Shown here one piece after another: positions 22,056 to 61,869 of a stretch of DNA of 64,000 bases. Source of the DNA: a virus (Duplodnaviria > Heunggongvirae > Uroviricota > Caudoviricetes); IMG/VR virus record IMGVR_UViG_3300044630_003672; one strand, written 5' to 3'. Positions within the stretch are counted from its first letter, which is position 1. Each line of letters opens with the position of its first letter. The notes under the pieces are model-generated. The model was not told the DNA's origin, made no database searches, and worked only from the letters and a program-made list of their open reading frames with translations. The translations under genes were made by a program, and so were the position numbers.

Positions 22056-22092
22056 CACATTATCGTTCTTTGACATATAGGAGAAATAAATT

Positions 22093-22350: not shown

Positions 22351-22369
22351 AAATTAGTTAAAGAACGAT

Positions 22370-22440: not shown

Positions 22441-22442
22441 GT

Positions 22443-22544: not shown

Positions 22545-22546
22545 CT

Positions 22547-22620: not shown

Positions 22621-22648
22621 TTCCGAATCACTAAATAAAAAATAAGTT

Positions 22649-23098
22649 ATGAGAAAAGTTATTCTTTTATTCTTAACTGTTATTATGTTTATTCCACATA
22701 ATATGATTGACTCCGAAATGAGTGAGGAAGAAGTTGCGGATATAATGATAGAAAAGAAACACATACCTTATGATGTAGTTACGGTTACAACATATACGGT
22801 ATCCGCCGGCCAAACCGATTCAACTCCCTTAATTACCGCAAGTGGTTATAAGTTGGATAGTCTTAATCCAAAGAAACAAAAGGTAATAGCGATTAGTAGA
22901 GACCTGAAACGAAAGTATAAGTTTGGACAAAAAGTAAGAGTGAAGGGTGCTGGAAAATTAGATGGTGTTTATACTGTCAGAGATTTGATGGCAAAGAGGT
23001 GGAGAAAAAAAATTGATATATTAATTAATCCTGATGAGAGTGGAACTAAAATCAGAAGGGTTAAAATATATAATATAAAAAAGGATTTGGATAATTAA
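22649..23098 (+). CDS. 3D-domain protein (MltA/YuiC-like cell-wall-binding or lytic domain) with an N-terminal signal/TM
   Basis: 'TVTTYTVSAGQTDSTPLITASGYKL...VIAISRDL...GQKVRV...GVYTVRDLMAKRWRKKIDIL' matches the 3D-domain consensus. Confidence 0.65.
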   Translation: MRKVILLFLTVIMFIPHNMIDSEMSEEEVADIMIEKKHIPYDVVTVTTYTVSAGQTDSTPLITASGYKLDSLNPKKQKVIAISRDLKRKYKFGQKVRVKGAGKLDGVYTVRDLMAKRWRKKIDILINPDESGTKIRRVKIYNIKKDLDN

Positions 23099-23119
23099 AT
23101 TATTATTCGTATCTTTGTA
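23086..23119 (+). promoter_or_regulatory. Bacteroidota-type promoter driving the tRNA-Leu/Ala/Met/Gly block
   Basis: 'GATTTGGATAATTAAATTATTATTCGTATCTTTGTAT'. Confidence 0.6.
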
Positions 23120-23142
23120 TAGTTATTAAAAATAGTATCGCC

Positions 23143-23228
23143 GCCGGGGTGATGGAATGGTAGACATGAAAGACTTAAAATCTTTTGAGCAGAAATCGCT
23201 CGTGTGGGTTCGAATCCCATCCCCGGTA
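23143..23228 (+). tRNA. tRNA-Leu(TAA), long variable arm
   Basis: Acceptor GCCGGGG/CCCCGGT, D-loop GAATGGTAGA, anticodon stem AAAGA/TCTTT, loop CTTAAAA. Confidence 0.8.
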
Positions 23229-23239
23229 CGTTCACTTAT

Positions 23240-23313
23240 GGGGAAGTAGCTCAGTTGGCTAGAGCACCTGCCTTGCACGCAGGGGGTCATGGGTTCGAAT
23301 CCCTTCTTCTCCA
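23240..23313 (+). tRNA. tRNA-Ala(TGC)
   Basis: Acceptor GGGGAAG/CTTCTCC, anticodon stem CCTGC/GCAGG, loop CTTGCAC. Confidence 0.8.
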
Positions 23314-23317
23314 CATC

Positions 23318-23391
23318 GGACCTATAGCTCATTCGGTTAGAGCAAATGACTCATAATCATTAGGTGCTTGGTTCGATTCCAAGTGGGTCCA
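23318..23391 (+). tRNA. tRNA-Met(CAT), third CAT species
   Basis: Acceptor GGACCTA/TGGGTCC, anticodon stem AATGA/TCATT, loop CTCATAA. Confidence 0.8.
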
Positions 23392-23448
23392 CAATAGGTG
23401 TCTAAAGCATTAAAGACTTAATGATGGTAATAGCCTCACCTATTAATT

Positions 23449-23524
23449 GCGGAAGTAGCTCATTTGGTAGAGCATGACCTTGCCAAGGTCAGGGTGGCCA
23501 GTTCGAGCCTGGTCTTCCGCTCCA
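23449..23524 (+). tRNA. tRNA-Gly(GCC), encoded CCA
   Basis: Acceptor GCGGAAG/CTTCCGC, anticodon loop TTGCCAA, T-loop TTCGAGC. Confidence 0.8.
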
Positions 23525-23579
23525 AAGCAGATAAAACGTGTAGTAACTGCAGGAATGATATCTTCCACTACACTCTTTA

Positions 23580-23652
23580 GCGAGAGTAGCTCATTTGGTA
23601 GAGCGGTAGCCTTCCAAGCTTCAGGTGGCCAGTTCGAGCCTGGTCTCTCGCT
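23580..23652 (+). tRNA. tRNA-Gly(TCC)
   Basis: Acceptor GCGAGAG/CTCTCGC, anticodon loop CTTCCAA; paralogous to the GCC copy. Confidence 0.75.
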
Positions 23653-23788
23653 CAAGTGGGCCTGTTAGTATTAGGCCGCAAGAAGAATAGATGTTTTTCA
23701 ATTACTAAAACTCAAGTACCCATACCGCTAGCGATGGGCTAAGTAAGATACAATTTCGCACTGCGGGAAGTAGAATGCTTGAGATTAT

Positions 23789-23860
23789 TGCCCGATGATG
23801 TAATGGTTAGCATCACAGATTTTGATTCTGTTCGTATTGGTTCGAGTCCAGTTCGGGTAA
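23789..23860 (+). tRNA. tRNA-Gln(TTG)
   Basis: Acceptor TGCCCGA/TCGGGTA, anticodon stem ACAGA/TCTGT, loop TTTTGAT. Confidence 0.75.
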
Positions 23861-23879
23861 CTCATTAAAAACAAATGTT

Positions 23880-24143
23880 ATGTTTATTACTTATTATGTA
23901 ATGTGTTTCATCTATTGTGTTATAATGTCAATACGAAAATGGAATAGAGATGTAATGGCTGGTGGATTAGGTATTTCACCTGGATTAGATTCTATGGCTC
24001 TATTGATTATGTGTTGGATATTAGCGCCAGTAGATATATTCTTAACTTGGGTTAGAATATATAAAGAAGCAGAAGAAGCTAGAAGAAAGCATGCCGATAC
24101 CGAAAATAGTTTAGACGGTAAAAGCGAAGAAAAAGTATTCTAA
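23880..24143 (+). CDS. small membrane protein
   Basis: Two TM segments. 87-aa ORF between tRNAs. Confidence 0.4.
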   Translation: MFITYYVMCFIYCVIMSIRKWNRDVMAGGLGISPGLDSMALLIMCWILAPVDIFLTWVRIYKEAEEARRKHADTENSLDGKSEEKVF

Positions 24144-24160
24144 TTATTAGAGTACTTAAC

Positions 24161-24245
24161 GGAGAAATGGCAGAGTGGTTGAATGCACCGGTCTTGAAAA
24201 CCGGCAACTGTAACAGGTTCTGGGGTTCGAATCCCTGTTTCTCCG
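24161..24245 (+). tRNA. tRNA-Ser(TGA), long variable arm
   Basis: Acceptor GGAGAAA/TTTCTCC, anticodon stem CCGGT/ACCGG, loop CTTGAAA. Confidence 0.8.
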
Positions 24246-24436
24246 CAAAAATTGTTAGATGGTGAAATTGGTTATCTATGTTATAACCTGGCAAACACAC
24301 CCACTCGTCTCGTGGGCGAGGATAAAGAAATAGAAAAGTAATATGGGGTTGACCACCAGCTTGCAAGCACTAAATGTTACTTTTTGAATCTCCTCCTGTA
24401 TGGTTCGAATCCTACTCTAACAGCATACTTATTGTT

Positions 24437-24985
24437 ATGAACGTTATATTATTTGTTGCATTAGAAAATGAGTTTCCAAAGGAAAAAGCACCGGAAGGTG
24501 TTAAAGTTGTTTATACTGGTGTTGGAAAAGTAAATGCGGCTATAAAAGCAACTGAAACTCTTAAAGATTTAGACCCCAAAGATGTAGTAGTTATAAACTA
24601 CGGAAGTGCGGGTGGGCATGCCGTTATGGTTGGTAGTTTATTTAAGTGTAAAACATTTGTCCAAAACGATATGGACGCTAGACCATTTGCAGATAAAACA
24701 AAAACACCATTTGATAATGAAATATTGATGGGTAATATTGATTTCAATGGATTGGGATATAATATATGTTATACACAAGACCATTTTCAAACCACACCAT
24801 CTGTAATATGTGATATGGAAGCATACTCAATTGCAAAGGTATGTAAGATTTATGGATTTGATTTTACTGCATACAAATATGTAAGTGATAGCGGTAATCC
24901 GGATGATTGGGAAGCTAATCACAACAAAGGAATTGAATTATTTTTAAAATCATTACAAAAATATGCCCTGATGGTGGAACGGTAG
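24437..24985 (+). CDS. mtnN: 5'-methylthioadenosine/S-adenosylhomocysteine nucleosidase (MtnN/Pfs family)
   Basis: PNP_UDP_1 fold: 'VVYTGVGKVNAA', 'INYGSAGG', 'DMEAYSIAKVCKIYGFDFTAYKYVSDSGN'. Start set to 'MNVILFVALENEF', because the longer ORF overlaps a tRNA-like remnant. Confidence 0.8.
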   Translation: MNVILFVALENEFPKEKAPEGVKVVYTGVGKVNAAIKATETLKDLDPKDVVVINYGSAGGHAVMVGSLFKCKTFVQNDMDARPFADKTKTPFDNEILMGNIDFNGLGYNICYTQDHFQTTPSVICDMEAYSIAKVCKIYGFDFTAYKYVSDSGNPDDWEANHNKGIELFLKSLQKYALMVER

Positions 24986-25045
24986 ACACATCAGTTTTAG
25001 GAACTGATATCGAGAGGTGTGAGAGTTCGAATCTCTCTTGGGGCA
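24965..25045 (+). tRNA. tRNA-Leu(TAG), long variable arm
   Basis: Acceptor GCCCTGA/TTGGGGC, D-loop GAACGGTAGA, anticodon stem TCAGT/ACTGA, loop TTTAGGA. Overlaps the last codons of mtnN. Confidence 0.75.
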
Positions 25046-25061
25046 CAAACAACTTAATAAT

Positions 25062-25757: not shown

Positions 25758-26181
25758 AATATTATACACCGGTGGAACATTTGACATATTACATTATGGC
25801 CACATGAACTTTCTTAAACAATGTTCTAAAATAGCTGATAAAGTAATAGTATCACTAAACACAGATGAGTTTATTGAATACTATAAAGGTAAACCACCAA
25901 TTATGACTTACGAAGAACGAAAGAAGTCTTTGGAGTTTTGTAAGTTTGTTGATGAGGTTATTCCTAACATCGGGGGTGCAGATAGTAAACCATCAATATT
26001 ACAAGTTAAACCTGATATCATAGCAATTGGTGATGATTGGGCAAAGAAAGATTATTATACACAAATGCAATTCACACAGGATTGGCTGGATGAAAATGAT
26101 ATTGTATTAGTTTACCTATCATACACCAGAGGAATCAGTACAACCGAAATTAAAAAAAGAATAACAAATGGCACAATATAA
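25750..26181 (+). CDS. cytidylyltransferase-family nucleotidyltransferase (TagD / RfaE-domain-II-like)
   Basis: N-terminal 'YTGGTFDILHYGHMNFL', the (H/T)xGH nucleotidyltransferase motif. Confidence 0.8.
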   Translation: MSKILYTGGTFDILHYGHMNFLKQCSKIADKVIVSLNTDEFIEYYKGKPPIMTYEERKKSLEFCKFVDEVIPNIGGADSKPSILQVKPDIIAIGDDWAKKDYYTQMQFTQDWLDENDIVLVYLSYTRGISTTEIKKRITNGTI

Positions 26182-26980
26182 CGAAACATTAAATTACATT
26201 AATAAGTTTACATATACTAGACCAAAGATAGGATTGGTATTGGGTTCAGGATTAGGTGATGTGGCTAACGATATAGATATTACAGCTACAATACCATATA
26301 AAGATATTCCGGGTTTTATCACACCAACGATTGAAGGGCATAGTGGTAATTTAATATTTGGTACACTTGATGGAGTACCGGTAGTAGCACTTCAGGGTAG
26401 AAATCATTATTACGAAGGATATACAATGCAAGAAATTACATACCCAATACGAATACTGAAAATGTTAGGTATCGAAAGATTGATAACATCCAACGCAACG
26501 GGTGGTATGAATCCTAACTTTGAAATTGGTGATGTGATGTTTGTAAATGACCATATTAATCTAATGGGTGATAATCCATTGTTAGGTCCAAATGATGATT
26601 CAATGGGACCTCGTTTTTTAGATGTTAGTGCGGCATATGATAAGGAAATGATTGAAGTAGCGAAACAATGTGAAGTTGATATTAGAACGCATGAAGGAGT
26701 ATTGATAGCAGTATCCGGTCCAAACTATGAAACGCCAGCAGAGTATAGATATATGAGTATAATAGGTGGAGATGCAGTTGGGATGTCAACTATACCTGAA
26801 GTATTAGTTGCTAGACATATGGGGGTTAAAGTATTCTCAATGTCTTTGATTACTGATTTAGGAGTTGCAGGTAAGATAGTAGAAATAACGCACGAAGAAG
26901 TGCAAAGAGTAGCAAATGAAAGTGCAGATAAAATGAGTTTAATAGTAAAACACATAGTATCTCACTTTGGTAAAAAATAA
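26168..26980 (+). CDS. purine nucleoside phosphorylase (PunA/XapA type)
   Basis: 'GSGLGDVA', 'IPGFITPTIEGHSGNLIFG', 'LQGRNHYYEGY', 'GPNYETPAEYRYMSIIGGDAVGMSTIPEVLVARHMG': a full-length PNP. Confidence 0.9.
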   Translation: MAQYNETLNYINKFTYTRPKIGLVLGSGLGDVANDIDITATIPYKDIPGFITPTIEGHSGNLIFGTLDGVPVVALQGRNHYYEGYTMQEITYPIRILKMLGIERLITSNATGGMNPNFEIGDVMFVNDHINLMGDNPLLGPNDDSMGPRFLDVSAAYDKEMIEVAKQCEVDIRTHEGVLIAVSGPNYETPAEYRYMSIIGGDAVGMSTIPEVLVARHMGVKVFSMSLITDLGVAGKIVEITHEEVQRVANESADKMSLIVKHIVSHFGKK

Positions 26981-29114: not shown

Positions 29115-30650
29115 ATGAAAATTGTTATAGTAGGTGGGGGAACAGCGGGTTGGTTGACTGCGGCATTCTTTGCAAATCAAAACCAATTATACAAACAGGA
29201 TAGATTAGAGCAAATAGATATTACTGTAATTGAAAGTTCCGATATACCAATTATCGGGGCCGGAGAAGGAACTACTGCGTTAATGCAACAAATGGTAGCT
29301 ACTCGTTTTTCTGCTTTGAAAAAAACTGAATTTAACTTTTTTAAAGGGTCACGTGCAGTGCCAAAATACGGAATACGTTTTAAAGATTGGAATGGGGTTG
29401 GTACTGAATTTTTAAGTCCCATACAACCGTCTGAAACCGCGGGATATAACGTAGATAGTGAATTTCTTGCTTCCTGTATGCAGGGTAATTTTTATGATTC
29501 ATCCATAGCGGGACATTTTATGTCCAGAGGAATATCGGATTATCACATTAACGGTAAAGAAAATATGGGTATACATGGTTATCACTTTGATGCCCATAAA
29601 GTTGGTGAATATTTTAAAAGTGTTTGTATAGAAAACGGTGTAAAACACATAGATGCTAAAGTTGATGATGTTAATATAAATCCAATAACAGGTGAATGTG
29701 ATAGCGTAAAATTGGAAGGTAACTTAATTCCGTTAGAGGCAGACTTTTGGATAGATTGTACTGGATTTCATAAGAAGTTAATTAATAAAATGGGTGCAAA
29801 ATGGATAAGTTATTCAAATGAACTTCCCGTAAATTCCGCATTACCTTATATACATCAATACGAAAAAGGACCGGAAGAAGCTAAATTAGAAACTTTGGCT
29901 TGGTCAATGCCGAATGGTTGGATGTGGCAAATACCAACGCAAGAAAGATATGGATGTGGTTATGTATATTGCGATAAATTTGTAAGTGATGATAAGGCGC
30001 TTGAAGAATTGGAAAAAACAACTGGTAGGAAAATACAACCGATAAGAAAATTAAGTTTTGATCCAGGTAGATTAGATAAATTTTGGATTAAAAATGTTGT
30101 AGCGATAGGATTATCATCTTCATTTTTAGAACCACTTCAAGCTACGTCAATTCATACAACGTTATTACAAGTTGATACGTTATTCAGTAATTTCTTTTCT
30201 TTAAATAAAAAAGAATTTTTTTTAGAACAAAATTTAAAACGATACAATGAGGTTATGGGAACTCTGGTAGATGAGTATAAAGACCTAATACGAATCCATT
30301 ACTATAATAAACGAAATGATTCAGAATTTTGGAAGTTTTGTAATAACGAATTACCAATGAGTGATTTTGTAAAAAATATCATAGAAATTTGTAAATATAG
30401 AAGTCCTTCTACATTTGATTTTTCCAGTTACAATGGTTCATCTGGTTGGGGTGTTTGGTGTTGGACATTGTACGGATTGGAAACTCTATCTAAACCCGCA
30501 GTATTTAATACATTAAAAAAATATTCTCTTATACATTATACAAAACAACTACACACTAAAATTATAAGACGTGCGGATGAAGGAGCTAAGTTATTACAAA
30601 CACAGGAACAATTTATAAAGAATTTAATGTCAGGAAAATTTTATAGTTAA
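29115..30650 (+). CDS. flavin-dependent halogenase (tryptophan halogenase family)
   Basis: N-terminal FAD motif 'MKIVIVGGGTAGWLTAAFF'. Halogenase-specific 'GWMWQIP' (WxWxIP) and 'FWIDCTGF'. Length 511 aa, typical of PrnA/RebH/VirX1-type enzymes. Confidence 0.85.
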   Translation: MKIVIVGGGTAGWLTAAFFANQNQLYKQDRLEQIDITVIESSDIPIIGAGEGTTALMQQMVATRFSALKKTEFNFFKGSRAVPKYGIRFKDWNGVGTEFLSPIQPSETAGYNVDSEFLASCMQGNFYDSSIAGHFMSRGISDYHINGKENMGIHGYHFDAHKVGEYFKSVCIENGVKHIDAKVDDVNINPITGECDSVKLEGNLIPLEADFWIDCTGFHKKLINKMGAKWISYSNELPVNSALPYIHQYEKGPEEAKLETLAWSMPNGWMWQIPTQERYGCGYVYCDKFVSDDKALEELEKTTGRKIQPIRKLSFDPGRLDKFWIKNVVAIGLSSSFLEPLQATSIHTTLLQVDTLFSNFFSLNKKEFFLEQNLKRYNEVMGTLVDEYKDLIRIHYYNKRNDSEFWKFCNNELPMSDFVKNIIEICKYRSPSTFDFSSYNGSSGWGVWCWTLYGLETLSKPAVFNTLKKYSLIHYTKQLHTKIIRRADEGAKLLQTQEQFIKNLMSGKFYS

Positions 30651-35520: not shown

Positions 35521-35612
35521 CTCGTTGATAATCAATGAGTTATAAATCATTGAAAATCAATCAGTTACGCCCCCTAAAAAATTCTTGATTGAGAATCAAT
35601 TAGTTACGTCTT
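35515..35612 (+). repeat. Intergenic repeat block: AACTCGTTGATAATCAATGAGTT palindrome, CATTGAAAATCAAT palindrome, conserved 37-bp element
   Basis: Near-perfect dyad AACTCGTTGAT-AA-TCAATGAGTT. The 37-bp element is identical to the one at 31510 except for one base. Confidence 0.7.
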
Positions 35613-35638
35613 TACCCCTAAAAATAACCCCTAAAATA

Positions 35639-35672
35639 TTTGGTAGTTTCATGCCTTTTTTGTAGTTTTACG
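35639..35672 (+). promoter_or_regulatory. Class-2 promoter
   Basis: 'CCCCTAAAATATTTGGTAG-N19-TAGTTTTACGATGTAATAAAA'. Confidence 0.55.
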
Positions 35673-45794: not shown

Positions 45795-46754
45795 ATGAAA
45801 GTAACCGTAGTAGTACGAACATGCAATAGACCAGAGTTTTTAAAAGAGGCATTGGCGTCAATTGAATTACAATCACATACTGATTGGGAAGTATTAATGT
45901 TTGATGATTCTGCATCTGATATTAATTTTTCAATTTATAAATGGTTTAAGCAAAGAAATTCTGATAAGAGAGTTTTGTATATGAGTACTAAATCTAGTTA
46001 TGATTTATTTCAAAATAGCTGGATTCTATCACCAGAACTTTCATTGGGAGAAATAATGATTAGATTAGATGATGATGATATTCTATTAAATGATTCTTTG
46101 AAATTTTTAGTAGATGTTTATACTACTAATAGTGAATTAGATTTTACATATGGTTCATCTATATTTTTTAATGATAATAAACTAACATCATTAGTTGAAA
46201 CCAAAAATCCATTTGAGCACGAAAAAACAAGAGCTATGTGGGCAGGTTATACTATTCCAAACAATAGTCCGTGGACAAATCCGTGGCAATTTATAGATAA
46301 TTACTTTGAAACCCCGCAACATTATACTTCAATAATTCATGCGGCAAAAGCAAATCAATTATCAATTTATCATTCATATTCAATGAGAACTTCTTCGGTA
46401 AAAAGAGTTAAAGATAAAATAAATCTAACATCTTTTTTTGTTGATGATCTTGAATTTTTGGGAAGTTTAGATTATTTAGGATTGGGACATAATTCAATAA
46501 AAAAGATTTTGTGTTTTGTAAGAACGCATAATCAAGGTAGAGTTTCCGATTATAATAAAGAAGTAAACGGACAAACTATGTATCAGGAAAATTTTAGAAT
46601 ACGTGATAAAGTTGATTATTTGAGACCTTCTGGATTTTTATCAAAAATAATTCCTATTCAAAATTCCGAAAATTATAACAATGGTATTTGTCAGGATATA
46701 ACTAATAAATTTATAGACCTGAATCAAAAAATACATGCCATCATAACTGATTGA
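45795..46754 (+). CDS. glycosyltransferase family 2 (GT-A fold)
   Basis: N-terminal 'VTVVVRTCNRPEFLKEALASIELQSHTDWEVLMFDDSASD' and a DDDD acidic motif. Confidence 0.75.
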   Translation: MKVTVVVRTCNRPEFLKEALASIELQSHTDWEVLMFDDSASDINFSIYKWFKQRNSDKRVLYMSTKSSYDLFQNSWILSPELSLGEIMIRLDDDDILLNDSLKFLVDVYTTNSELDFTYGSSIFFNDNKLTSLVETKNPFEHEKTRAMWAGYTIPNNSPWTNPWQFIDNYFETPQHYTSIIHAAKANQLSIYHSYSMRTSSVKRVKDKINLTSFFVDDLEFLGSLDYLGLGHNSIKKILCFVRTHNQGRVSDYNKEVNGQTMYQENFRIRDKVDYLRPSGFLSKIIPIQNSENYNNGICQDITNKFIDLNQKIHAIITD

Positions 46755-46795
46755 TAATCAATGACTTATAACTTATTGGTTCTCAATGAGTTATA
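46745..46795 (+). repeat. Intergenic repeat block (TGATTGATAATCAATGACTTAT ... CTCAATGAGTTAT)
   Basis: TTGAnnnTCAA dyad family. Confidence 0.6.
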
Positions 46796-48440: not shown

Positions 48441-49553
48441 ATGAAGTTAGAAACAATTTACAAAAAAACAAAGACAGGCGCTACTCAAGAGTGGACAATT
48501 GAAGTAGTGAGTAACAAATACCGAACCCATAGTGGACAAGTTGGTGGGGCAATCACTACAAACGAATGGACAGTAGTGTATGGTAAGAATGTAGGTAAAG
48601 CAAATGGTACTACCGATAATGAACAAGCTCTTAAAGAAGCTGAAGCTAAACGTACAAAGAAATTAGAGAGTGGTTACTTTGAGAATATCAAACACATCAA
48701 TAAGACTCAATACTTTGAACCAATGTTAGCGGCTAAGTGGGATGATTATAAAGATAAGGTTACATATCCAATATTCTCACAGCCAAAGCTAGATGGTATT
48801 CGTTGTATAGTTACAAAGGATGGTATGTTTAGTAGAAATGGTAAACCAATCATTTCAGCACCACACATTAGAGAGAGTTTGAATAGTGTATTTGAAACGC
48901 ACCCTACATTGATATTGGATGGTGAGTTATATGCTGATAAGTTCGCTAACGATTTCAATGCAATTGTATCGTTGGTTAAGAAAACAAAACCAACCGATGC
49001 TGATTTGCTTGAAAGTAAAAAGAATATTCAGTATTGGATTTATGATATACCAAGTAATAGTTCAAACTTTGGTGAACGTTGTTATGCATTGGACCAGTTA
49101 TTTGATGTTGAACTTGATTCGTTTGAAAAACATTGTGTATTAGTTGAAACCGATACGTGTAATAGCGAAGATGAAGTTATGGAATTGTATGGTGAGTATG
49201 TAGATAAAGGATTCGAAGGCCAGATGTTACGATTGGATAGTAAGTATGAGAATAAGAGAAGCAAATCTTTATTGAAACATAAATCATTTGTGGACGAAGA
49301 ATATATCATTAAAGATATTTGTGAGGGTGAGGGTAATAGAACTGGAACTGCCGGTTATATGGTATTTGAAACCGCAGATGGTAAACCTTTCAAATCAAAT
49401 GTAAAGGGGACATGGGAAGAAACTGCTGAAATGTTAAAGAGTAAAAAGAAACTAATAGGTAAACAAGCAACGATTAAGTATTTCAATTTAACACCGGATG
49501 GTATTCCTCGTTTTCCTTTTGTAATTAATATTGATAGAGCAAGTTATGAGTAA
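48441..49553 (+). CDS. ATP-dependent DNA ligase (phage T7-type)
   Basis: Motif I 'QPKLDGIRCIV' (KxDG), 'LILDGELYA' and 'EGQMLRLDSKY...KSLLKHK', the nucleotidyltransferase plus OB-fold motif order. Confidence 0.9.
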   Translation: MKLETIYKKTKTGATQEWTIEVVSNKYRTHSGQVGGAITTNEWTVVYGKNVGKANGTTDNEQALKEAEAKRTKKLESGYFENIKHINKTQYFEPMLAAKWDDYKDKVTYPIFSQPKLDGIRCIVTKDGMFSRNGKPIISAPHIRESLNSVFETHPTLILDGELYADKFANDFNAIVSLVKKTKPTDADLLESKKNIQYWIYDIPSNSSNFGERCYALDQLFDVELDSFEKHCVLVETDTCNSEDEVMELYGEYVDKGFEGQMLRLDSKYENKRSKSLLKHKSFVDEEYIIKDICEGEGNRTGTAGYMVFETADGKPFKSNVKGTWEETAEMLKSKKKLIGKQATIKYFNLTPDGIPRFPFVINIDRASYE

Positions 49554-51126: not shown

Positions 51127-51160
51127 TTTGGTATATTCAAAATAATTTCGTATATTTGTA
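51127..51160 (+). promoter_or_regulatory. Bacteroidota-type promoter
   Basis: 'AAATTTGGTATATTCAAAATAATTTCGTATATTTGTAA'. Confidence 0.65.
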
Positions 51161-51179: not shown

Positions 51180-51467
51180 ATGATAGATTTTTTAAAAAAG
51201 TACAAAACGCAAATCTTTAATATCATTACGATATTTTTGATTTTAGAATTCGTAATTTATCCTGGTCTTACAAAGGCCGATACCGTATCAAACATATTAG
51301 CAGGTATTGGATTTTTGTTATTGATTGTATGGGGTGGATTAGCACTTTACAGCTATATAACATCGGATAAAGGTGGTATAGTTGATAAAGAGGAATTGAA
51401 GGAAGCTCAAAAAATATTAGATGAGCAAAGTAAACCAAAACGTAAGTACACTAAAAAAACAAAGTAA
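51180..51467 (+). CDS. membrane protein
   Basis: Two TM segments and a basic C-terminus. Confidence 0.4.
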   Translation: MIDFLKKYKTQIFNIITIFLILEFVIYPGLTKADTVSNILAGIGFLLLIVWGGLALYSYITSDKGGIVDKEELKEAQKILDEQSKPKRKYTKKTK

Positions 51468-51468
51468 T

Positions 51469-52395
51469 ATGGCATTCGAATCGTTTGAAGAAAGGTATGC
51501 TCGCCAACAAAAAGAGCGTGAAGAACAATTACAACAATATAAATTAGAACAACAATTAAAAATTAAAAAGATGACAAAGATTATCGGTGGTAGTATCGTT
51601 GGATTATTTCTAATGGTATTTTTATTTAAGTCTTGCGAAAGAATTGATGCAGGACACGTGGGTGTTAAAGTAAACCTTTATGGTGATAACAAAGGTGTAA
51701 GTGATGTGACTGAAGTAACTGGTATGGTATTCTATAATCCAATTACACATTCAATCTATGAGTTCCCTACATTCATTCAACACAAAGAATATACAGGTGA
51801 AAATTCATTTGTAGTAAATAGTAAAGATGGTAGTGAGTTTCACGTTTCACCAATCATTAACTATTCAGTAAAGAGAGAGAAAGTTCCATCAATCTTCGCT
51901 AAATATCGTAGAAGTTTGGACCAAATAGAAGAAGGGTTTTTGAAAACATCCGTATTTGACGCATTCAGATTGGCAACCAACAAATATACAGCTGATGAAT
52001 TAATTGGTAATAGACAAGCATATGAAGTTGAGGTTCGTAAGATATTAGAAGGGCAACTATTAGCAGAAGGATTTATTGTTAATCAGTTTACATCAAATTT
52101 AGTATATCCTGAAACATTCAAAACGGCAATTGAGGCTAAGAATAACGCAGTTCAGGCGGCATTGATGGCTGAAAATAAAGTAAAAACTGCCGAAGCTGAA
52201 GCAAAGATTAAAGTAGCAACTGCGGAAGGTAACGCACAAGCATTACTTACATCGGCAAAAGCTGAAGCTGAAGCAAATAGAATGAAGCAACAAACATTGA
52301 CACCATTACTTATTCAATTAGAATATGTACAAAAGTGGGATGGTAAATTGCCAGTATATGGTACTGTACCGCAGTTGTTTAAAAGCATTCAATAA
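51469..52395 (+). CDS. SPFH/Band-7 (prohibitin/HflK-like) membrane protein
   Basis: TM followed by 'IDAGHVGVKVNLYG...', an SPFH core and an Ala/Glu-rich coiled coil 'AEAEAKIKVATAEGNAQALL'. Confidence 0.8.
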   Translation: MAFESFEERYARQQKEREEQLQQYKLEQQLKIKKMTKIIGGSIVGLFLMVFLFKSCERIDAGHVGVKVNLYGDNKGVSDVTEVTGMVFYNPITHSIYEFPTFIQHKEYTGENSFVVNSKDGSEFHVSPIINYSVKREKVPSIFAKYRRSLDQIEEGFLKTSVFDAFRLATNKYTADELIGNRQAYEVEVRKILEGQLLAEGFIVNQFTSNLVYPETFKTAIEAKNNAVQAALMAENKVKTAEAEAKIKVATAEGNAQALLTSAKAEAEANRMKQQTLTPLLIQLEYVQKWDGKLPVYGTVPQLFKSIQ

Positions 52396-52410: not shown

Positions 52411-52438
52411 AAGTCTTGGTAATTCCAAGACTTTTTTG
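52411..52438 (+). terminator. Rho-independent terminator
   Basis: AAGTCTTGG-TAATT-CCAAGACTT followed by TTTTTT, directly abutting the next promoter's -7 box. Confidence 0.8.
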
Positions 52439-52448
52439 TATATTTGTA
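52415..52448 (+). promoter_or_regulatory. Bacteroidota-type promoter overlapping the terminator
   Basis: -7 'TATATTTGTAT' at 52439; -33-like 'CTTGG' 19 nt upstream. Confidence 0.5.
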
Positions 52449-54941: not shown

Positions 54942-55253
54942 ATGAGCAAAGAAACATTTCAATTAGCAAAGCCGTTAGCGGACAGAGTACTTATTGAGAA
55001 AGAAGAAGTACAAACAAAAACAACAGGTGGTATTATCATTCCAGAAACCGCTAGAGCAGAAGATACAAAGATTGGAGTTGTAGTTTCAGTTGGTGAAGGT
55101 ATATACACAAACGATGGGGTTAAAATTCCAATGAGTGTGAAAGTAGGCGATAAGGTTATGATGCCACAAATCGGGACTGCACAAATTGTGAAACTAGAAA
55201 ACAAAGAATATTATTTATTCAGAGAACAAGAATTATTAATGATTATAAAATAA
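54942..55253 (+). CDS. groES: co-chaperonin GroES (Hsp10)
   Basis: Collinear with GroES: 'AKPLADRVLIEKEE...TTGGIIIPETA...GVVVSVGEG...VKVGDKV...EYYLFREQELLMIIK'. Confidence 0.9.
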   Translation: MSKETFQLAKPLADRVLIEKEEVQTKTTGGIIIPETARAEDTKIGVVVSVGEGIYTNDGVKIPMSVKVGDKVMMPQIGTAQIVKLENKEYYLFREQELLMIIK

Positions 55254-55258
55254 AAATT

Positions 55259-55705
55259 ATGGCAACAAAAGTATTATTTAAAACAGCAAAAGGTAACATG
55301 GTAGTCGAACTATATGACGAGACACCAATTGCATCTGGTAACTTTAAAAAATTAGTTGAAAAAGGATTTTACAATGGATTAAACTTTCATAGAGTTATTC
55401 CAAACTTTATGGTTCAAGGTGGATGTCCGAACGGTAGAGGTGATGGCGGACCTGGTTATACAATTCCGTGTGAGGTGAATGCACCAAAGCAATTTCATGA
55501 TAGGGGTGTATTAAGTATGGCACACGCCGGTCGAAATACTGGTGGTTCACAATTCTTTATTTGTCACAATAGAGCAGGAGTTGCACATTTGGACGGCAAT
55601 CACACTTGCTTCGGTAAAGTAATTGAAGGGGTTGAAGTGGTTGATTTTATCAGACAAGGTGATTCTATTATTTCAATTGAAGTGATTAATGAAACAAACA
55701 TTTAA
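55259..55705 (+). CDS. peptidyl-prolyl cis-trans isomerase, cyclophilin type
   Basis: 'FHRVIPNFMVQGGCP', 'GVLSMAHAGRNTGGSQFFI' and 'LDGNHTCFGKVIEG', the canonical cyclophilin core. Confidence 0.9.
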   Translation: MATKVLFKTAKGNMVVELYDETPIASGNFKKLVEKGFYNGLNFHRVIPNFMVQGGCPNGRGDGGPGYTIPCEVNAPKQFHDRGVLSMAHAGRNTGGSQFFICHNRAGVAHLDGNHTCFGKVIEGVEVVDFIRQGDSIISIEVINETNI

Positions 55706-55912: not shown

Positions 55913-56147
55913 GTTAAAAGAATGGATTAAAGACGGGATTGATATTCGTAAAACAAACGAGGGGTATGTAGTATTCACAATACCAACACAGCATTTCAAT
56001 ATCAAAGAGTTGGACGAATTAACACCTGAAAGATTCAGTAAGGAAGTTGAAAGGCAAGATAAAGCTAATGAACTTACAATTGAATTATTAGGTGAAGCAT
56101 TTGGTAAAAGAGTTGAAGCCGGATTATTTAAAGATTTATTTGATTAG
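55896..56147 (+). CDS. hypothetical protein
   Basis: 83 aa. Confidence 0.4.
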   Translation: MKKMIELKEWIKDGIDIRKTNEGYVVFTIPTQHFNIKELDELTPERFSKEVERQDKANELTIELLGEAFGKRVEAGLFKDLFD

Positions 56148-56149
56148 TT

Positions 56150-56371
56150 ATGAATTGGGATATATTCGGATACATAGGAACTGTAGTGGTCCTTTATTCG
56201 TTCACAATAGAAAACATTTACCGATTGCGTTTAATAAATTCAATCGGTTCTATGTTTTGGATAGTTTACGGATTGGGTATTATGGCGGGACCTACAATTG
56301 TAGTTAATGCTTGTGTATTAATGATTCACATTTATTGGTTTATAAAACATCGTAAAGAATGGCAAAAATAA
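56150..56371 (+). CDS. small membrane protein
   Basis: Two TM segments. Confidence 0.4.
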   Translation: MNWDIFGYIGTVVVLYSFTIENIYRLRLINSIGSMFWIVYGLGIMAGPTIVVNACVLMIHIYWFIKHRKEWQK

Positions 56372-56586
56372 TTTATTTAGAGGACACAATTGCTTTGATG
56401 GCGAATACCGGAAAAATGAATGTAGTAAAACAAATAGCGAAGTTGGGCGAGTTTACTCAAACAAAAGATGGGTATCGTTATATAGTTTTGGACGAAGATA
56501 AACGAAACGATATCTGTCCAATACATAGTACATTATTGAATGAGGACGGAAGTTGTAACAAATGTTTAGATGATAATAACAAATAA
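56359..56586 (+). CDS. hypothetical protein
   Basis: 75 aa. Confidence 0.4.
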   Translation: MAKIIYLEDTIALMANTGKMNVVKQIAKLGEFTQTKDGYRYIVLDEDKRNDICPIHSTLLNEDGSCNKCLDDNNK

Positions 56587-56587
56587 A

Positions 56588-56932
56588 ATGATATTAAAAA
56601 ATCCTGAAAAGTTATTAAAAACAATTATACCAAGTGCAACCGGTAATTTGATTTGGTGTGTAACAAACGTCAATGTAACGATGGATGACGAAATTACATA
56701 TGTATTTCAATTCCAAACGCAAGTGCCTGTTATAAGTTCACCTAATCAGCAATACTATTCTATGACTCGTGCAAGAATTGAGGAAGCTAAGTTAAGTTTT
56801 TATAGAGTTCAACATGAAAATACATATGAATTGTTTTGTTATGGACAAGTACAACGTGGATATTGTACCGATATAGACACAATGGATAAATTTATTGATG
56901 TATTAAGATATATGCTACCAAACACTTATTAA
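56588..56932 (+). CDS. hypothetical protein
   Basis: Start adjusted to 'MILKNPEKL'. Confidence 0.4.
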   Translation: MILKNPEKLLKTIIPSATGNLIWCVTNVNVTMDDEITYVFQFQTQVPVISSPNQQYYSMTRARIEEAKLSFYRVQHENTYELFCYGQVQRGYCTDIDTMDKFIDVLRYMLPNTY

Positions 56933-56933
56933 G

Positions 56934-57230
56934 ATGCTAACAATAGAAAACGAAAAAAAGTTATTAGGTACTATATTGCATGGTAGCGGAAGTGCCGGTC
57001 CAATGGAATGGGTTGTAACTTCAATAAGACCACATTTGAATCACTATGTAATTTTTATTGAGCAAACTGAAAATGGTTGGGACAAGAAAATAGTTTTGGA
57101 CAGAAGTTTTTCACCGTTTAAACTTGGACACCAATACAAATTAGAATGTGGAAATGAAAAAAAGTATATACACAGAGACGATATGAAAAATATTGATATA
57201 TTCAGTAATCATTTAGAATCATTTATTTAG
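56934..57230 (+). CDS. 'MLTIENI' family paralog 1
   Basis: Starts with the conserved 'ATGCTAACAATAGAAAAC'. N-terminal 'MLTIEN', then W-V-V...Y-I-I...G pattern. Confidence 0.55.
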   Translation: MLTIENEKKLLGTILHGSGSAGPMEWVVTSIRPHLNHYVIFIEQTENGWDKKIVLDRSFSPFKLGHQYKLECGNEKKYIHRDDMKNIDIFSNHLESFI

Positions 57231-57231
57231 T

Positions 57232-57540
57232 ATGCTAACAATAGTAAACATAGAAAAACTTTACAAACAGGATGTAGGTGAATGGAGAATAGGTAAAGTA
57301 GTAACATTGGATAGTGCATACCTAATTGAATTAAGAAAATCCAATGGCCTACGATTGCAAGTTAATTTAGAACGAACCGCAATAGGTAAGAGTGATTCGG
57401 CACTTTATGAATTATGGTTTTGGTCTAATCAATCGGGAAGTGGAATACCAATTAGAAGGATATTAAATAAACCGGATTTGAAGTTAGGCACTGTATATGT
57501 GACTGATTTGATAAAAGATATGTTAGAATCTTTAAAATAA
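57232..57540 (+). CDS. 'MLTIENI' family paralog 2
   Basis: 'MLTIVNIEKLYKQDVGEWRIGKVV...'. Confidence 0.55.
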   Translation: MLTIVNIEKLYKQDVGEWRIGKVVTLDSAYLIELRKSNGLRLQVNLERTAIGKSDSALYELWFWSNQSGSGIPIRRILNKPDLKLGTVYVTDLIKDMLESLK

Positions 57541-57545
57541 AAAAT

Positions 57546-57674
57546 ATGAGTATAGAATTTCAATTTATTTGGGGCTTCTTAATAGGAGCCGGAGTTGGTG
57601 CACTAATTGCATTATTTGTGGCACAACGAATGGTAAAAAGAGTAATTAAAAAAGTATTAAATAGTTTCGGATGA
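57546..57674 (+). CDS. small membrane protein (42 aa)
   Basis: 'MSIEFQFIWGFLIGAGVGALIALFVAQRMVKR'. Not in the track. Confidence 0.3.
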   Translation: MSIEFQFIWGFLIGAGVGALIALFVAQRMVKRVIKKVLNSFG

Positions 57675-57979
57675 GTATAAACATTTCAACGGATAGTAGA
57701 CACCTTACAATGAAGGGTAATGGTAAAGTACAAATCAAAACTTCAATACAAATATACGGAACAGGTACTAAAATGCCTGTAACTGTTGAAGCTGATTTTA
57801 CAAACATCCCGCATCACTTACATCAAATCTATTATCAATCCTTAATAAGTCAATACAATACATCCGTCAATGTATATAACAATACAAAGGATGACGAACC
57901 GAAAACAATAAGAGAAAAAAAGAGTGAATGGCGGTTGAATAGGATTGTGGACATAATTAGTAAAGCAATATCTAAATAA
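57671..57979 (+). CDS. hypothetical protein
   Basis: 102 aa; interrupts the paralog array. Confidence 0.4.
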   Translation: MSINISTDSRHLTMKGNGKVQIKTSIQIYGTGTKMPVTVEADFTNIPHHLHQIYYQSLISQYNTSVNVYNNTKDDEPKTIREKKSEWRLNRIVDIISKAISK

Positions 57980-57988
57980 ATAAATCGT

Positions 57989-58186
57989 ATGAATGTTACA
58001 ATAGACGATATCAAAGGAATAGAGCAAGAATTAGACGTAGAATTAACAAAGGAGCAAAGGGATACGATATTAAAGCAATATCAAAGAGTAGTAATGGACA
58101 ATGCGGATAATTGGAATGTTATTTTAAAAGACCTAATAAACGGAATGAATGTTGACAATAGAAAACATACAAAATATAGACGGTAA
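57989..58186 (+). CDS. hypothetical protein
   Basis: 65 aa. Confidence 0.35.
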   Translation: MNVTIDDIKGIEQELDVELTKEQRDTILKQYQRVVMDNADNWNVILKDLINGMNVDNRKHTKYRR

Positions 58187-58475
58187 GGAATTCCAATTGA
58201 GTAGCGGACGGAAGTTTATAATTGGTATCGCAAGAGCATATTATGACCATTATAGTTTTGGGGTATTTCCTTTGATGGAAAACAATGTGGCAAGTATAAA
58301 CGATGGTATTGTATATAAATTGATGCGAACTATAAGGAATAGTAGGGGATATGAAATGACATCGGCAAAACTAAAACAAAATGTTTATGTAACGCCGGAA
58401 AACCTTACAATGAAAAACTTCATATTAGAGTTACACATACAAACTGGAATGATATATGCTCACAATAGAAAATAG
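58149..58475 (+). CDS. 'MLTIENI' family paralog 3
   Basis: 'MLTIENIQNIDGKEFQLSSGRKFIIGI'. Confidence 0.5.
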   Translation: MLTIENIQNIDGKEFQLSSGRKFIIGIARAYYDHYSFGVFPLMENNVASINDGIVYKLMRTIRNSRGYEMTSAKLKQNVYVTPENLTMKNFILELHIQTGMIYAHNRK

Positions 58476-58779
58476 AGGACGGTTAATAAGTGATTCGTTT
58501 TATGATAAGATGGGTATGTATTGGGTAGTGGACAAAATTATAGATGACACCGATGAATACCTAATCTTAATTGAAAATAGAAAAGGCCCAAAAGAAATAT
58601 TTGCTTTGAATAAACAAAACCTACATGGAATTGGATATGAATTTGGAATATCAGCAGGTGGGCCGGGTATGCAAAGAATGTATAAGATTAAAACATACAT
58701 ACCAATTGAAACTATAAGTGATAAGAGGTTATTGATAAAACGAATGACTGAAATGATTGATACCTCATACGATATATAA
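58456..58779 (+). CDS. 'MLTIENI' family paralog 4
   Basis: 'MLTIENRGRLISDSFYDKMGMYWVVDKIIDDTDEYLILIENRKG'. Confidence 0.55.
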   Translation: MLTIENRGRLISDSFYDKMGMYWVVDKIIDDTDEYLILIENRKGPKEIFALNKQNLHGIGYEFGISAGGPGMQRMYKIKTYIPIETISDKRLLIKRMTEMIDTSYDI

Positions 58780-58789
58780 AAAATAATAT

Positions 58790-59113
58790 ATGCTAAAAAT
58801 AAAAAACATACAAAAGATAGTAGGAAAAAAAATACATACACCACATGCACATTGGGTAGTAATGAGTATAGAGGAACAAAAGCATGATTATATTATTAAA
58901 GTAAGATTTGAGTATGGTACTACATTTGGCGTAAAGCATCCAAAGTATGTAAACTTTAAACTATTAAGATATAATGAATTTAGTAGTACGTTAGGTGAGT
59001 GGAAAATGTATAATGACCAAGATAATGGTTATACAATACTAACAAAAGGTTACTTACAATTGAAAATGTTTGTTGGTATATTGGGTGGTCAATTGCATAG
59101 TTTCAGTAATTAA
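58790..59113 (+). CDS. 'MLTIENI' family paralog 5 (divergent N-terminus, MLKIKNI)
   Basis: 'HWVVMSIEEQKHDYIIKVRFEYG'. Confidence 0.5.
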   Translation: MLKIKNIQKIVGKKIHTPHAHWVVMSIEEQKHDYIIKVRFEYGTTFGVKHPKYVNFKLLRYNEFSSTLGEWKMYNDQDNGYTILTKGYLQLKMFVGILGGQLHSFSN

Positions 59114-59123
59114 AACAAATAAT

Positions 59124-59447
59124 ATGCTAACAATAGAAAATACATATAAGATATTAGATGTACCAATAGTTAAGAATCGTGTTGTAGAATATTATATAAG
59201 AAATACTACTCAATATGAAAGAGCATATCAAATACATTTAAGATGTCCGCGTAAATCAAAATCTGACGAGTTATTAGTTTTACTTAGAACTTCGGACGTA
59301 TTTGGTCCTAATATGGAAACAACCTACGCGATGTATGATAATAGTAATCCTACGAGTAGAATATATTTAAGAACAAAGGATATATCGGACATGAGACAGT
59401 TTGTAAGCTCAATAGAATTTTTAGTAAACAAATATATACTATGCTAA
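59124..59447 (+). CDS. 'MLTIENI' family paralog 6
   Basis: Start set to the internal 'MLTIENTYKILDV' (ATGCTAACAATAGAAAAT). The track's longer start overlaps paralog 5. Confidence 0.5.
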   Translation: MLTIENTYKILDVPIVKNRVVEYYIRNTTQYERAYQIHLRCPRKSKSDELLVLLRTSDVFGPNMETTYAMYDNSNPTSRIYLRTKDISDMRQFVSSIEFLVNKYILC

Positions 59448-59749
59448 CAATACAAAACATAGATAAAATAATAAATGTGGGTTCATCTATTAACATATGG
59501 TATATAAGTGAAGCGATAGAAACAACCGATGTTTATAAGGATGTATATGCATTTGCTGTTTCTGTAAACGGTAAGGTACAAAATGTATTTTATTTGAATA
59601 GAGAGAGCCAATATGTAAGTGGCAGAAACGAACCCGTTTATAGGTTATATAAAGATTTTGACCAAAGTAAAGTAAATAGATGGTTGAGTATGCATCAAAT
59701 AACGCCGTATTTTATAGGAAACTTAATTGATAAAATGTTAAAAGAATAG
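59441..59749 (+). CDS. 'MLTIENI' family paralog 7
   Basis: 'MLTIQNIDKIINVGSSINIWYISEAIE'. Confidence 0.55.
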   Translation: MLTIQNIDKIINVGSSINIWYISEAIETTDVYKDVYAFAVSVNGKVQNVFYLNRESQYVSGRNEPVYRLYKDFDQSKVNRWLSMHQITPYFIGNLIDKMLKE

Positions 59750-59750
59750 T

Positions 59751-60077
59751 ATGCTAACAATAGAAAACATAAACATACTCAATAGTAAGTTTGCCGGTAC
59801 ACCCGAATGGCGGATAGGTGAAATGTTTATAGGTGAACAAAACTATATATTTGTAATCCATAAACGGGTAGGTTATTGGACAATCGGGGGTTTTAGGCGT
59901 GATGAGTTGACTATAAAATTGAATAGAGTAAAAACAATAGGTGGGTATGTAATGGAGACCGGACTAGTAAAACAAAGCTTTCATGGACGTTCGGCATGGG
60001 ATATAGAGTATATGAGGACCATAAGTAGTTTTACTTTTTGCTTGGACACTCATATAAAAAATATAGTAAATCAATAA
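59751..60077 (+). CDS. 'MLTIENI' family paralog 8
   Basis: 'MLTIENINILNSKFAGTPEWRIGEMFIGEQNYIFVIHKRVG'. Confidence 0.55.
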   Translation: MLTIENINILNSKFAGTPEWRIGEMFIGEQNYIFVIHKRVGYWTIGGFRRDELTIKLNRVKTIGGYVMETGLVKQSFHGRSAWDIEYMRTISSFTFCLDTHIKNIVNQ

Positions 60078-60080
60078 AAT

Positions 60081-60236
60081 ATGAATAACGAACTAAAAAC
60101 AAAAGATATATTAGAGGGGATAACCTTTATATTAATGATAGTAGCTACAATAGGTATGTTTTGCCTGTTATATGAAGTAAAGGAATTGAGGGAACTAACA
60201 AAGGGTGCAAGTAATTTCCGAACTATAAGAAAATAA
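60081..60236 (+). CDS. small membrane protein (51 aa)
   Basis: 'MNNELKTKDILEGITFILMIVATIGMFCLLYEV...'. Not in the track. Confidence 0.3.
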   Translation: MNNELKTKDILEGITFILMIVATIGMFCLLYEVKELRELTKGASNFRTIRK

Positions 60237-60435
60237 AATCGGACAATAGTAATACATAGTATAATACATATAGTATATTCAGTACTTGTAGTATATATCG
60301 TATCGGTGAATCGGTGTTCGGGTCGATAGGGAAAATTTTTGATAGTGTCTGCCTTGATTAATAGAGAATGGATTAATAGGAAATAAAAATAAGATTTGAA
60401 TATATATTTATAACAAACAATTAAAAACAAATAGT

Positions 60436-60708
60436 ATGGCAATAGATTTTAGTACAAACACGGATACATGGTGGCAAGAATCATTTGAAAGGTATATCAC
60501 TGGTGGTGGGGGTTTTGGAGTTACTGCTGGTATGGGGTTTGAAGCAATAGAGAAACATTACAAGGCGTGTATACCAGCGGATTTTGTAGATAGGGAATTG
60601 ATAACTACTCCAACCGAATGGGTTATAAGAGGGACACATCCAAGAGTTGGTCCATTTCGTTTAAGTGTTCAAAGAGCTGATAGGAGTTGGGAGTTTGTTT
60701 GGGAATAA
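60436..60708 (+). CDS. hypothetical protein (Gly-rich, locally GC-rich)
   Basis: 90 aa. Confidence 0.4.
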   Translation: MAIDFSTNTDTWWQESFERYITGGGGFGVTAGMGFEAIEKHYKACIPADFVDRELITTPTEWVIRGTHPRVGPFRLSVQRADRSWEFVWE

Positions 60709-61835: not shown

Positions 61836-61869
61836 TTTGGTGGAATGGATTTTTTTTCGTATATTTGTA
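61836..61869 (+). promoter_or_regulatory. Bacteroidota-type promoter
   Basis: 'GATTTGGTGGAATGGATTTTTTTTCGTATATTTGTAT'. Confidence 0.65.

Follow-up and report, generated by a model that had tools for sequence, protein, structure and literature searches.

The internal proteins IPI, IPII and IPIII of phage T4 begin with a capsid-targeting sequence (CTS), MKTYQEFIAE, which is also conserved at the DNA level; the site recognized by the prohead protease is (L/I)-x-E. The internal proteins of T-even phages, whose locus is polymorphic, are highly diverse defence proteins that share only this conserved CTS, and IPI* serves specifically to inhibit a restriction enzyme of the host (PMC3012670). In the hyperplastic regions of T4-type phages, modular shuffling is mediated by promoter early stem-loop (PeSL) cassettes (PMC2839356, PMC4122927). 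Here, we describe a tandem array of small paralogous genes, which is located in a stretch of 64,000 nucleotides (the window) of the virus record IMGVR_UViG_3300044630_003672 (Caudoviricetes). The window has a GC content of ~32% and all of its genes lie on the + strand. The array almost certainly represents a real, undescribed protein family, whose genes have a start that is conserved in two layers, as an amino-acid motif and as a nucleotide cassette.

Eight open reading frames (ORFs) had been proposed to form the array from inspection of the DNA (the original prediction), and all of them are present at the proposed starts on the + strand, each encoding 98 to 108 amino acids. The total, however, is nine, as a divergent member (member 0, 56588..56932, + strand) is located directly upstream; a six-frame profile scan of the window revealed no family member beyond these nine. 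Member 0 belongs to a divergent subfamily, starts with MILKNPEKLL and is recognized by the family hidden Markov model (HMM) with E=2.5e-22 and by an N-terminally trimmed HMM with E=5e-5. Its database relatives begin with MILKNPD/E, and an alternative ATG lies upstream at 56570. Member 1 (56934..57230, 98 amino acids) and member 2 (57232..57540, 102 amino acids) start with the cassettes ATGCTAACAATAGAAAAC at 56934-56951 and ATGCTAACAATAGTAAAC at 57232-57249, respectively. As had been noticed, the array is then broken by unrelated genes at 57546-58186, where three small ORFs are found. Member 3 (58149..58475, 108 amino acids) and member 4 (58456..58779, 107 amino acids) carry the cassette variants ATGTTGACAATAGAAAAC and ATGCTCACAATAGAAAAT and overlap by 20 nucleotides. 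The MLTI start that was thought to be common to all copies is present in most of them, but member 5 (58790..59113, 107 amino acids) begins with MLKIKN. Member 5 represents the most widely conserved orthogroup of the array, with 86-91% nucleotide identity in distant relatives, and a His-rich stretch (KIHTPHAHW...KHDY) is found in this orthogroup. Member 6 (59124..59447, 107 amino acids, cassette ATGCTAACAATAGAAAAT) starts at an ATG inside a longer ORF with a TTG start, and its TAA stop codon lies within the cassette of member 7 (59441..59749, 102 amino acids, ATGCTAACAATACAAAAC) in the overlap ATGCTAA. The last gene, member 8 (59751..60077, 108 amino acids), has the cassette ATGCTAACAATAGAAAAC. 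All nine members are encoded on the + strand.

The nine paralogs share only 15-28% pairwise identity, and BLASTP detects significant pairwise similarity mainly in the first ~45 residues. For a test beyond the N-terminus, a profile was built exclusively from database sequences less than 40% identical to any member of the window, and its first 12 columns were cut. With this profile, matches were obtained for all nine N-terminally trimmed members (E 4e-19 to 5e-5) but for not one of the 573 background ORFs of the window. The similarity is therefore not limited to the first six residues, and the paralogy suspected earlier extends over the full length of the proteins. The statement that the family cannot be related to known ones also stood up to curated libraries: no significant match of the family members was found in Pfam or NCBIfam; the best hits in PHROGs (E=0.018) and PADLOC (E=0.011) each concern one member only and belong to different families; and a profile search of the PDB sequences reached E=0.026 at best, with unrelated proteins. 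Neither megablast with the region 54.9-62.3 kb nor tblastn with member 5 gave a match among 50,697 INPHARED phage records; at the sensitivity of these searches, no cultured relative appears to carry the family. Relatives are instead found in large sequence collections. When 5.8 billion protein clusters were searched with a profile, 395 proteins were retrieved at E<=0.01 (90% clustering), none of which has a Pfam domain or a name beyond 'hypothetical protein' or a similarly uninformative label, and some family proteins are encoded on uncultured phage contigs of 240-247 kb. An exhaustive HMMER search of 1.84 billion representatives at 50% identity revealed 267 clusters at E<=1e-3, nearly all of them 95-120 amino acids long and matching from residue 1 onward, which sets the family size at no less than 267 clusters at 50% identity. 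Across the family, conservation is strongest in the N-terminal signature M-L-T-I-(K/E/Q)-N-(I/Y)-x-K-(L/I)-x-G: among 136 representatives of 85-125 amino acids, L2 is found in 113, I4 in 118, N6 in 113 and K9 in 92. The isoelectric points are mixed (5.2-9.7), and the members as a group can therefore be described neither as DNA mimics nor as basic internal proteins.

Structure prediction, which had been suggested as a check, yielded one shared fold with confident scores for two distant members. The AlphaFold2 models of member 5 (pLDDT 89.1, pTM 0.82) and member 3 (pLDDT 93.7, pTM 0.86) have the same topology, a small alpha/beta sandwich in which a short helix at the N-terminus is followed by six antiparallel strands and a long helix at the C-terminus. 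Residues 1-10 are confidently placed in both models (pLDDT 87 and 94). The fold had no significant match in the libraries searched. Closest in architecture are two-layer alpha/beta sandwiches such as the type III secretion chaperones ExsC, SycH and ShcA, YbjN/DUF2170-like proteins, frataxin/CyaY and NdhV; the likeness to type III secretion chaperones and frataxin-like sandwiches appears to be one of architecture only, and no sequence-profile match to the chaperone or YbjN-like families was found in Pfam, NCBIfam or PDB. Column conservation in 141 diverse sequences revealed that conserved residues alternate along the strands and that the C-terminal helix has a hydrophobic stripe. The conserved set comprises L2, I4, N6, K9, W23, V25, Y35, which is invariant, I37, L58, R60, Y68 and L70, while the strand positions between them, as well as four loops (17-21, 43-53, 62-66 and 72-80), are close to maximal entropy and rich in indels. 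In the predicted fold, the conserved residues would probably occupy the core-facing side of the sheet, and the opposite face and the four loops would be hypervariable.

The second layer of the start is found in the DNA. The sequence ATGCTAACAATA occurs five times in the window, exclusively at starts of family genes, and the first 12 nucleotides are identical in five copies. Leu2 is encoded by CTA in six of eight copies, compared to a genome background of 9.2% (P=1.4e-5); Thr3 is ACA in 7/7, Ile4 is ATA in 8/8 and Asn6 is AAC in 6/8 copies, the latter against a background of 27%. The 5' conservation that had been reported at the DNA level is thus real and exceeds both chance and the expectation from codon usage, but it is not complete, as member 3 has TTG and member 4 CTC at Leu2. 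The wider sample consisted of 30 family genes less than 60% identical, which are not fully independent and were taken from the window and from ten related loci. Related loci on other phage contigs are named L001, L002 etc. in the following; L009 is the closest with ~94% nucleotide identity. In the wider sample, CTA is used for Leu2 in 17/29 genes compared to a frequency of 0.17 within the same genes (P=5e-7), and ACA for Thr3 in 21/23 compared to 0.45 (P=4e-6); the values for ATA and AAC are 25/28 against 0.63 and 15/29 against 0.30. The synonymous bias is confined to codons 2-7 with none from codon 8 onward, and the nucleotide conservation around the starts ends at +21 and is weak upstream, in a region that is A-rich. 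A preference for ACA and, more weakly, for ATA in the first codons is shared by other genes of the window, but a preference for CTA or AAC is not; part of the start signal is therefore specific to the family. Two explanations for the use of CTA were rejected. It could have been chosen to create the overlapping TAA stop codon in ATGCTAA; however, TTA would give the same stop. A link to the phage tRNA-Leu(UAG) is unspecific, since this tRNA is present but the 26 tRNAs of the window cover most codons.

The two layers can be told apart in relatives in which the start of the domain is no longer the start of the gene. Three distant relatives have N-terminal extensions, and the initiator Met of the domain is replaced, resulting in GVLTIKN, RILTIQN and KYLTIKN. 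These internal copies keep LTIxN; their Thr codons are ACT, ACG and ACT, and the Leu, Ile and Asn codons are mixed. ACA is used in none of the three internal copies compared to 21 of 23 at gene starts (Fisher P=0.004). The models and the fused relatives thus show the amino-acid motif as a predicted structural part of the domain that persists when it becomes internal, whereas the nucleotide bias ATG-CTA-ACA-ATA-nnn-AAC goes with the position at the gene start, with three genes making up the internal sample. N-terminal extensions are present in several relatives (e.g., L001 5994-6467, P0017, P0024 and P0063); in some, a 37-residue CxxC...CxxC extension resembling a zinc ribbon is fused in frame onto the family initiator Met, and in others the extension is helical.

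The original prediction had offered a conserved initiation or regulatory RNA element as one explanation. A nucleotide function linked to the start is indirectly supported by the loss of the bias in internal copies. A structured RNA such as a leader, riboswitch or attenuator overlapping each start, on the other hand, is very unlikely: the nucleotides around the start codon are indeed conserved, but none of the Rfam 15 covariance models matched the region 56000-60600 at E<=1, RNAalifold predicted zero base pairs for 22 start regions, and the conservation is restricted to an A-rich segment that ends at +21 and hardly extends upstream. The 200-nucleotide intergenic region after the array also folds no better than shuffled sequences.

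The array genes are separated by 1-10 nucleotides from stop to start or overlap, and Shine-Dalgarno (SD) sequences are absent. In Bacteroidetes, translation initiates without SD sequences and an A at position -3 is favoured (PMC6847099); the common junction TAA/TAG-T-ATG of the array places an A at -3. The motif TTTG-N18-22-TAnnTTTG was found 13 times in the window compared to 3.9 expected, with 12 of the 13 on the + strand, and TAnnTTTG is the consensus of the flavobacterial sigmaA -7 box (PMC9723704). Sigma70-type promoters are not enriched (35 found, 49 expected). The nearest strong Bacteroidota-type motif upstream of the array (TTTGG-N15-TTCGTATATTTG) is located at 51127..51158 (+) and may be the start of the transcription unit containing the array; a -7 box with one mismatch lies in between at 52435-52446. 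Downstream, a Bacteroidota-type motif at 61836..61867 (+) marks the start of the next putative transcription unit. On the + strand between 52446 and 61836, no Bacteroidota-type promoter motif was found except for a match with two mismatches inside a coding region; between 54 and 62 kb, no terminator-like site was found on the + strand and a single one on the - strand; and the T4 late promoter TATAAATA is absent from the + strand of the array, although this consensus is that of T4 and may not be the one used by this phage. Since promoters and terminators are missing within the array and the genes are tightly spaced, the array appears to belong to a polycistronic unit of ~10 kb that is transcribed from a host-type promoter, which would imply early transcription. 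The sigmaA-type motif and the absence of SD sequences suggest a host from the Bacteroidota. The cassette ATGCTAACAATANNNAAC was also used as a probe against 596 Gb of viral and genome contigs and gave mostly single chance matches; with only 15 specified bases, it is too short for a collection of this size and uninformative on the host. A ~42-nucleotide intergenic repeat (AATAnATTTGGTAGnTTCAAAAnnATTTCGTATATTTGTATA) containing TTTG-N20-TATATTTG occurs on the + strand at 2945, 6924, 16227, 21761, 23086, 39071, 43427, 51127 and 61836, and variants of it lie at 406-446 and 18665-18715. The repeat is a likely marker of early transcription units.

It is possible, if rather unlikely, that the cassette acts in translation only, either as an enhancer of SD-independent initiation or re-initiation or as an operator for a translational repressor, and that recombination breakpoints at gene starts are a by-product of selection for intact genes. 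The restriction of the bias to codons 2-7 and its loss from internal copies would fit this explanation, as would the close or overlapping arrangement of the genes without SD sequences, the preference of other window genes for ACA and partly ATA, and the dependence of initiation in Bacteroidetes on local sequence and low structure (PMC6847099). CTA and AAC, however, are not generally preferred at other starts, and a family-specific signal would still be needed; the rearrangements described below speak against it as well.

The original prediction had considered recent duplication or gene conversion, and neither is borne out. Members 0, 1 and 8 have separate orthologs in L005, where the flanking genes have diverged to a synonymous distance (dS) above 1, and members 5 and 7 have orthologs in L001, L008 and L010, where the neighbouring genes can no longer be aligned; since individual paralogs have their own orthologs in diverged phages, the duplications are old. 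That recent duplication or ongoing conversion keeps the 5' ends alike is thus hardly credible: the identity of the first 12 nucleotides in five copies is what such a process would leave behind, but the paralogs are only 15-28% identical, the minority TTG codon at Leu2 of member 3 has been retained in its L009 ortholog and not been homogenized, and the same bias is found across the 30 genes of the wider sample.

Comparison of substitution rates across copies was another suggested check; among the orthologs compared here, most are under purifying selection. For most members, the ratio of non-synonymous to synonymous substitution rates (dN/dS) against L009 is 0.04-0.36, and these members are therefore real genes under constraint. 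Member 0 is 98% identical to its L009 and 74% to its L005 ortholog at the amino-acid level (dN/dS 0.12-0.23), and member 1 also has orthologs in both loci (0.05-0.14), as does member 8 (0.34-0.51). The L009 orthologs of members 2 and 3 give 0.36 and 0.11, and the former has no ortholog in L005; the values for members 4 and 6 are 0.19 and 0.32. Member 5, of which L001, L004, L008, L009 and L010 carry orthologs, has a dN/dS of 1.19 against L009, with 25 non-synonymous and ~5 synonymous changes clustered in residues 65-97. These changes resemble the allele of L010, and other pairs of this orthogroup range from 0.15 to 0.57. Swapping of N-termini between paralogs in the same orthogroup was rejected, since the entropy is 0.61 in residues 1-13 and 0.52 in residues 14-64, without a clear excess.

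Copy-number variation in related phages had been suggested as a check as well, and the number of copies does differ: nine in the window, ten in L009, three and a weak fourth match in L005, and 8-13 members per 20 kb or less in L001, L002, L004, L008 and L010, which results in 3-13 copies per 20-kb locus. Four junctions illustrate these differences at nucleotide resolution. The first (J1) is an indel of a single gene that distinguishes L001 from L002; in L001, a 24-nucleotide direct repeat and the cassette flank it. In the second (J2), a gene present in L001 is absent from L002, and the extra segment extends exactly from one ATG to the next. The third (J3) is a gene whose sub-array in L008 differs from the one it occupies in L001 and L010; the copies are 89% identical at the nucleotide level, and the homology reaches from 2 nucleotides before the ATG to the stop codon. 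In the fourth (J4), the slot of the window ORF at 57989-58186 holds a tenth family gene (9042-9359) in L009, and the homology between the two stops at window position 57979 and restarts at 58134. Furthermore, orthologs of member 7 are found at another array position in L001, where this type of gene lies upstream of the member 5 type; in L008 and in the window, it lies downstream. Overall, 84 of 96 interior ends of synteny blocks, which are not mutually independent, fall within 25 nucleotides of a family ATG compared to 12% at random. These comparisons show that exact ATG-to-ATG units are gained, lost and moved; recombination at the cassette may be the cause of this turnover. For a role of the cassette in translation only, it is difficult that direct repeats or microhomology including the cassette flank real indels (J1 and J2) and that one gene moved between array positions with breakpoints at its ATG and stop codon (J3).

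Taken together, one stable scaffold may present diversified binding surfaces, and each paralog most likely binds its own target, a host or defence protein, early in infection. The array would be co-transcribed within a ~10-kb block from a promoter of the host sigmaA type (Bacteroidota-like), and its genes would be translated by coupled, SD-independent initiation. The nucleotide layer of the cassette might provide the context for initiation or re-initiation, a short homology for the recombination of whole genes, or both. We consider the chances of this combined reading, i.e., diversified binding modules in an early host-transcribed operon with a cassette for SD-free initiation and/or recombination, to be about even. 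The rapid diversification and the host-takeover or anti-defence role that had been proposed for the array are plausible in this context; the signs of diversification are mainly the turnover of genes and the variability of surface positions.

Several points weigh against this combination of binding modules, early operon and cassette. Binding partners, expression time and phenotype are all deduced; the host is assigned solely through promoter-like motifs and the lack of SD sequences; and the division into core-facing and exposed positions follows from the alternation along the strands. Most orthologs are under purifying selection without obvious positive selection, and the pattern of changes suggests that the sole dN/dS value above 1 belongs to a mosaic allele. 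With regard to the cassette, the comparison with internal copies covers three genes only, and no specific mechanism explains why C is preferred at +4 and +18 (CTA over TTA, AAC over AAT). BLAST alignments tend to run into the shared cassette, which affects the block ends, and part of their distribution may also stem from selection for intact genes and from divergence rates that differ between genes.

A further step would be to regard the first ~20 coding nucleotides as an in-frame exchange site, a counterpart of PeSLs or of integron attC sites that works without a dedicated recombinase. This is conceivable but doubtful. If it were true, every insertion would automatically restore a working start context, and the phage population could shuffle, amplify and trade genes for target-specific inhibitors, e.g., for anti-defence against the immunity of Bacteroidota. 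The family is large, confidently folded and unannotated, and it is concentrated in the plastic region of a clade of large uncultured phages, which probably infect Bacteroidota, whose molecular warfare with phages is poorly known. Provided that the paralogs bind specific targets, their arrays would be a catalogue of host-takeover or anti-defence factors for screening. The two-layer start represents a tractable case for how tightly packed phage operons without SD sequences secure initiation, and likewise for short repeats embedded in coding sequence as possible exchange sites of gene cassettes. Should none of these readings hold, this would be one more family of unknown function.

The three ORFs that interrupt the array are all encoded on the + strand and do not belong to the family. 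The first (57546..57674) encodes a hydrophobic protein of 42 amino acids, which is probably a single membrane helix; it has a YtxH-like match below threshold only and a L009 ortholog with 79% amino-acid identity. The second (57671..57979, 102 amino acids) has no HMM match and is kept in L009 and L005 with a dN/dS of 0.08-0.15. The third (57989..58186, 65 amino acids) is variable and overlaps the start of member 3 by 38 nucleotides; its own start (ATGAATGTTACAATAGAC, MNVTIDDIKGI) is similar to the family cassette. The ORFs directly upstream of the array at 54942-55253 and 55259-55705 look like GroES and cyclophilin, because their L005 orthologs (74% and 86% identical) carry Cpn10 and Pro_isomerase domains.

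The window also encodes AAA ATPases and contains 26 tRNA genes at 18267-25046 (+), which cover most amino acids and include Leu(UAG) at 24965-25046, Leu(UAA), Thr(UGU) and three tRNAs with a CAU anticodon. The window is rich in auxiliary genes, which are located at 29115-30650, 26168-26980, 11437-12285, 48441-49553, 51421-52395 and 54942-55705; Pfam matches identify a tryptophan halogenase, a nucleoside phosphorylase, an NAD-dependent epimerase, an ATP-dependent DNA ligase and a Band-7/SPFH protein. The tryptophan halogenase is ~36% identical to its homologs from cyanomyoviruses. In related contigs, heme oxygenase, bilin reductase, UvdE and Cpn10-PPIase genes are found beside the arrays. Heme oxygenase and ferredoxin-dependent bilin reductase lie beside the array in L001 (7607-8720) and L004 (260-1373), and the same slot holds a flavodoxin-like FMN reductase in L002 (9099-9671) and L003 (3696-4268), which points to replacement of auxiliary genes at one position. 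A second repeat with an internal palindrome (CATTGAnnATCAATnnGTTAT), a candidate hairpin terminator or binding site for a protein, is present at 6870-6913, 35576-35642 and 46748-46795 and in intergenic regions of L009 and L005.

A comparison with the T4 internal proteins is suggested by the relationship of the phage, whose DNA ligase is, among isolates, most similar to those of the T4-superfamily phages Cr30 and phiM12 (39-46% identity), which makes it a distant relative of this superfamily. As in T4 with IPI, IPII and IPIII, a cluster encodes diverse small proteins with a common N-terminus of ~10-12 residues, and here the ~12-residue segment is fixed at residue 1 and conserved in the DNA, too. 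The N-terminal peptide could thus be a packaging signal, and the paralogs would be packaged into the virion and injected as diversified anti-restriction or anti-defence proteins, like the T-even defence set with its common CTS (PMC3012670). This is improbable. The T4 internal proteins are unrelated beyond their leader, whereas the members of this family are homologous over one full-length fold. The T4 leader ends in a protease site and lies outside the mature fold; the family has no conserved protease site, as position 5 is K/Q/E/V/T, N6 is nearly invariant and no Glu is conserved in residues 1-12, and its N-terminus is predicted to lie inside the domain, in agreement with the LTIxN retained in internal copies. 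No T4 late promoter is present on the array strand, although this phage may use another late consensus, and a putative host-type promoter lies upstream; IPI* is not among the listed structural matches, and the N-terminus does not resemble the T4 CTS in sequence.

The likeness to the PeSL system concerns the genes and their breakpoints. In both cases, a plastic region contains small non-essential genes without known function that are gained, lost or substituted as whole units, and breakpoints lie at a short conserved motif that recurs at each gene boundary; here, this is seen at J1 to J4 and in the 84 of 96 block ends near a family ATG. PeSLs, however, are intergenic and each contain a strong early promoter and a stem-loop, whereas the motif of this array consists of the first ~20 coding nucleotides, neither promoter nor stem-loop was found with it, and the genes are apparently co-transcribed. 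The array can thus be described as a multigene family of a plastic region with cassette-style shuffling.

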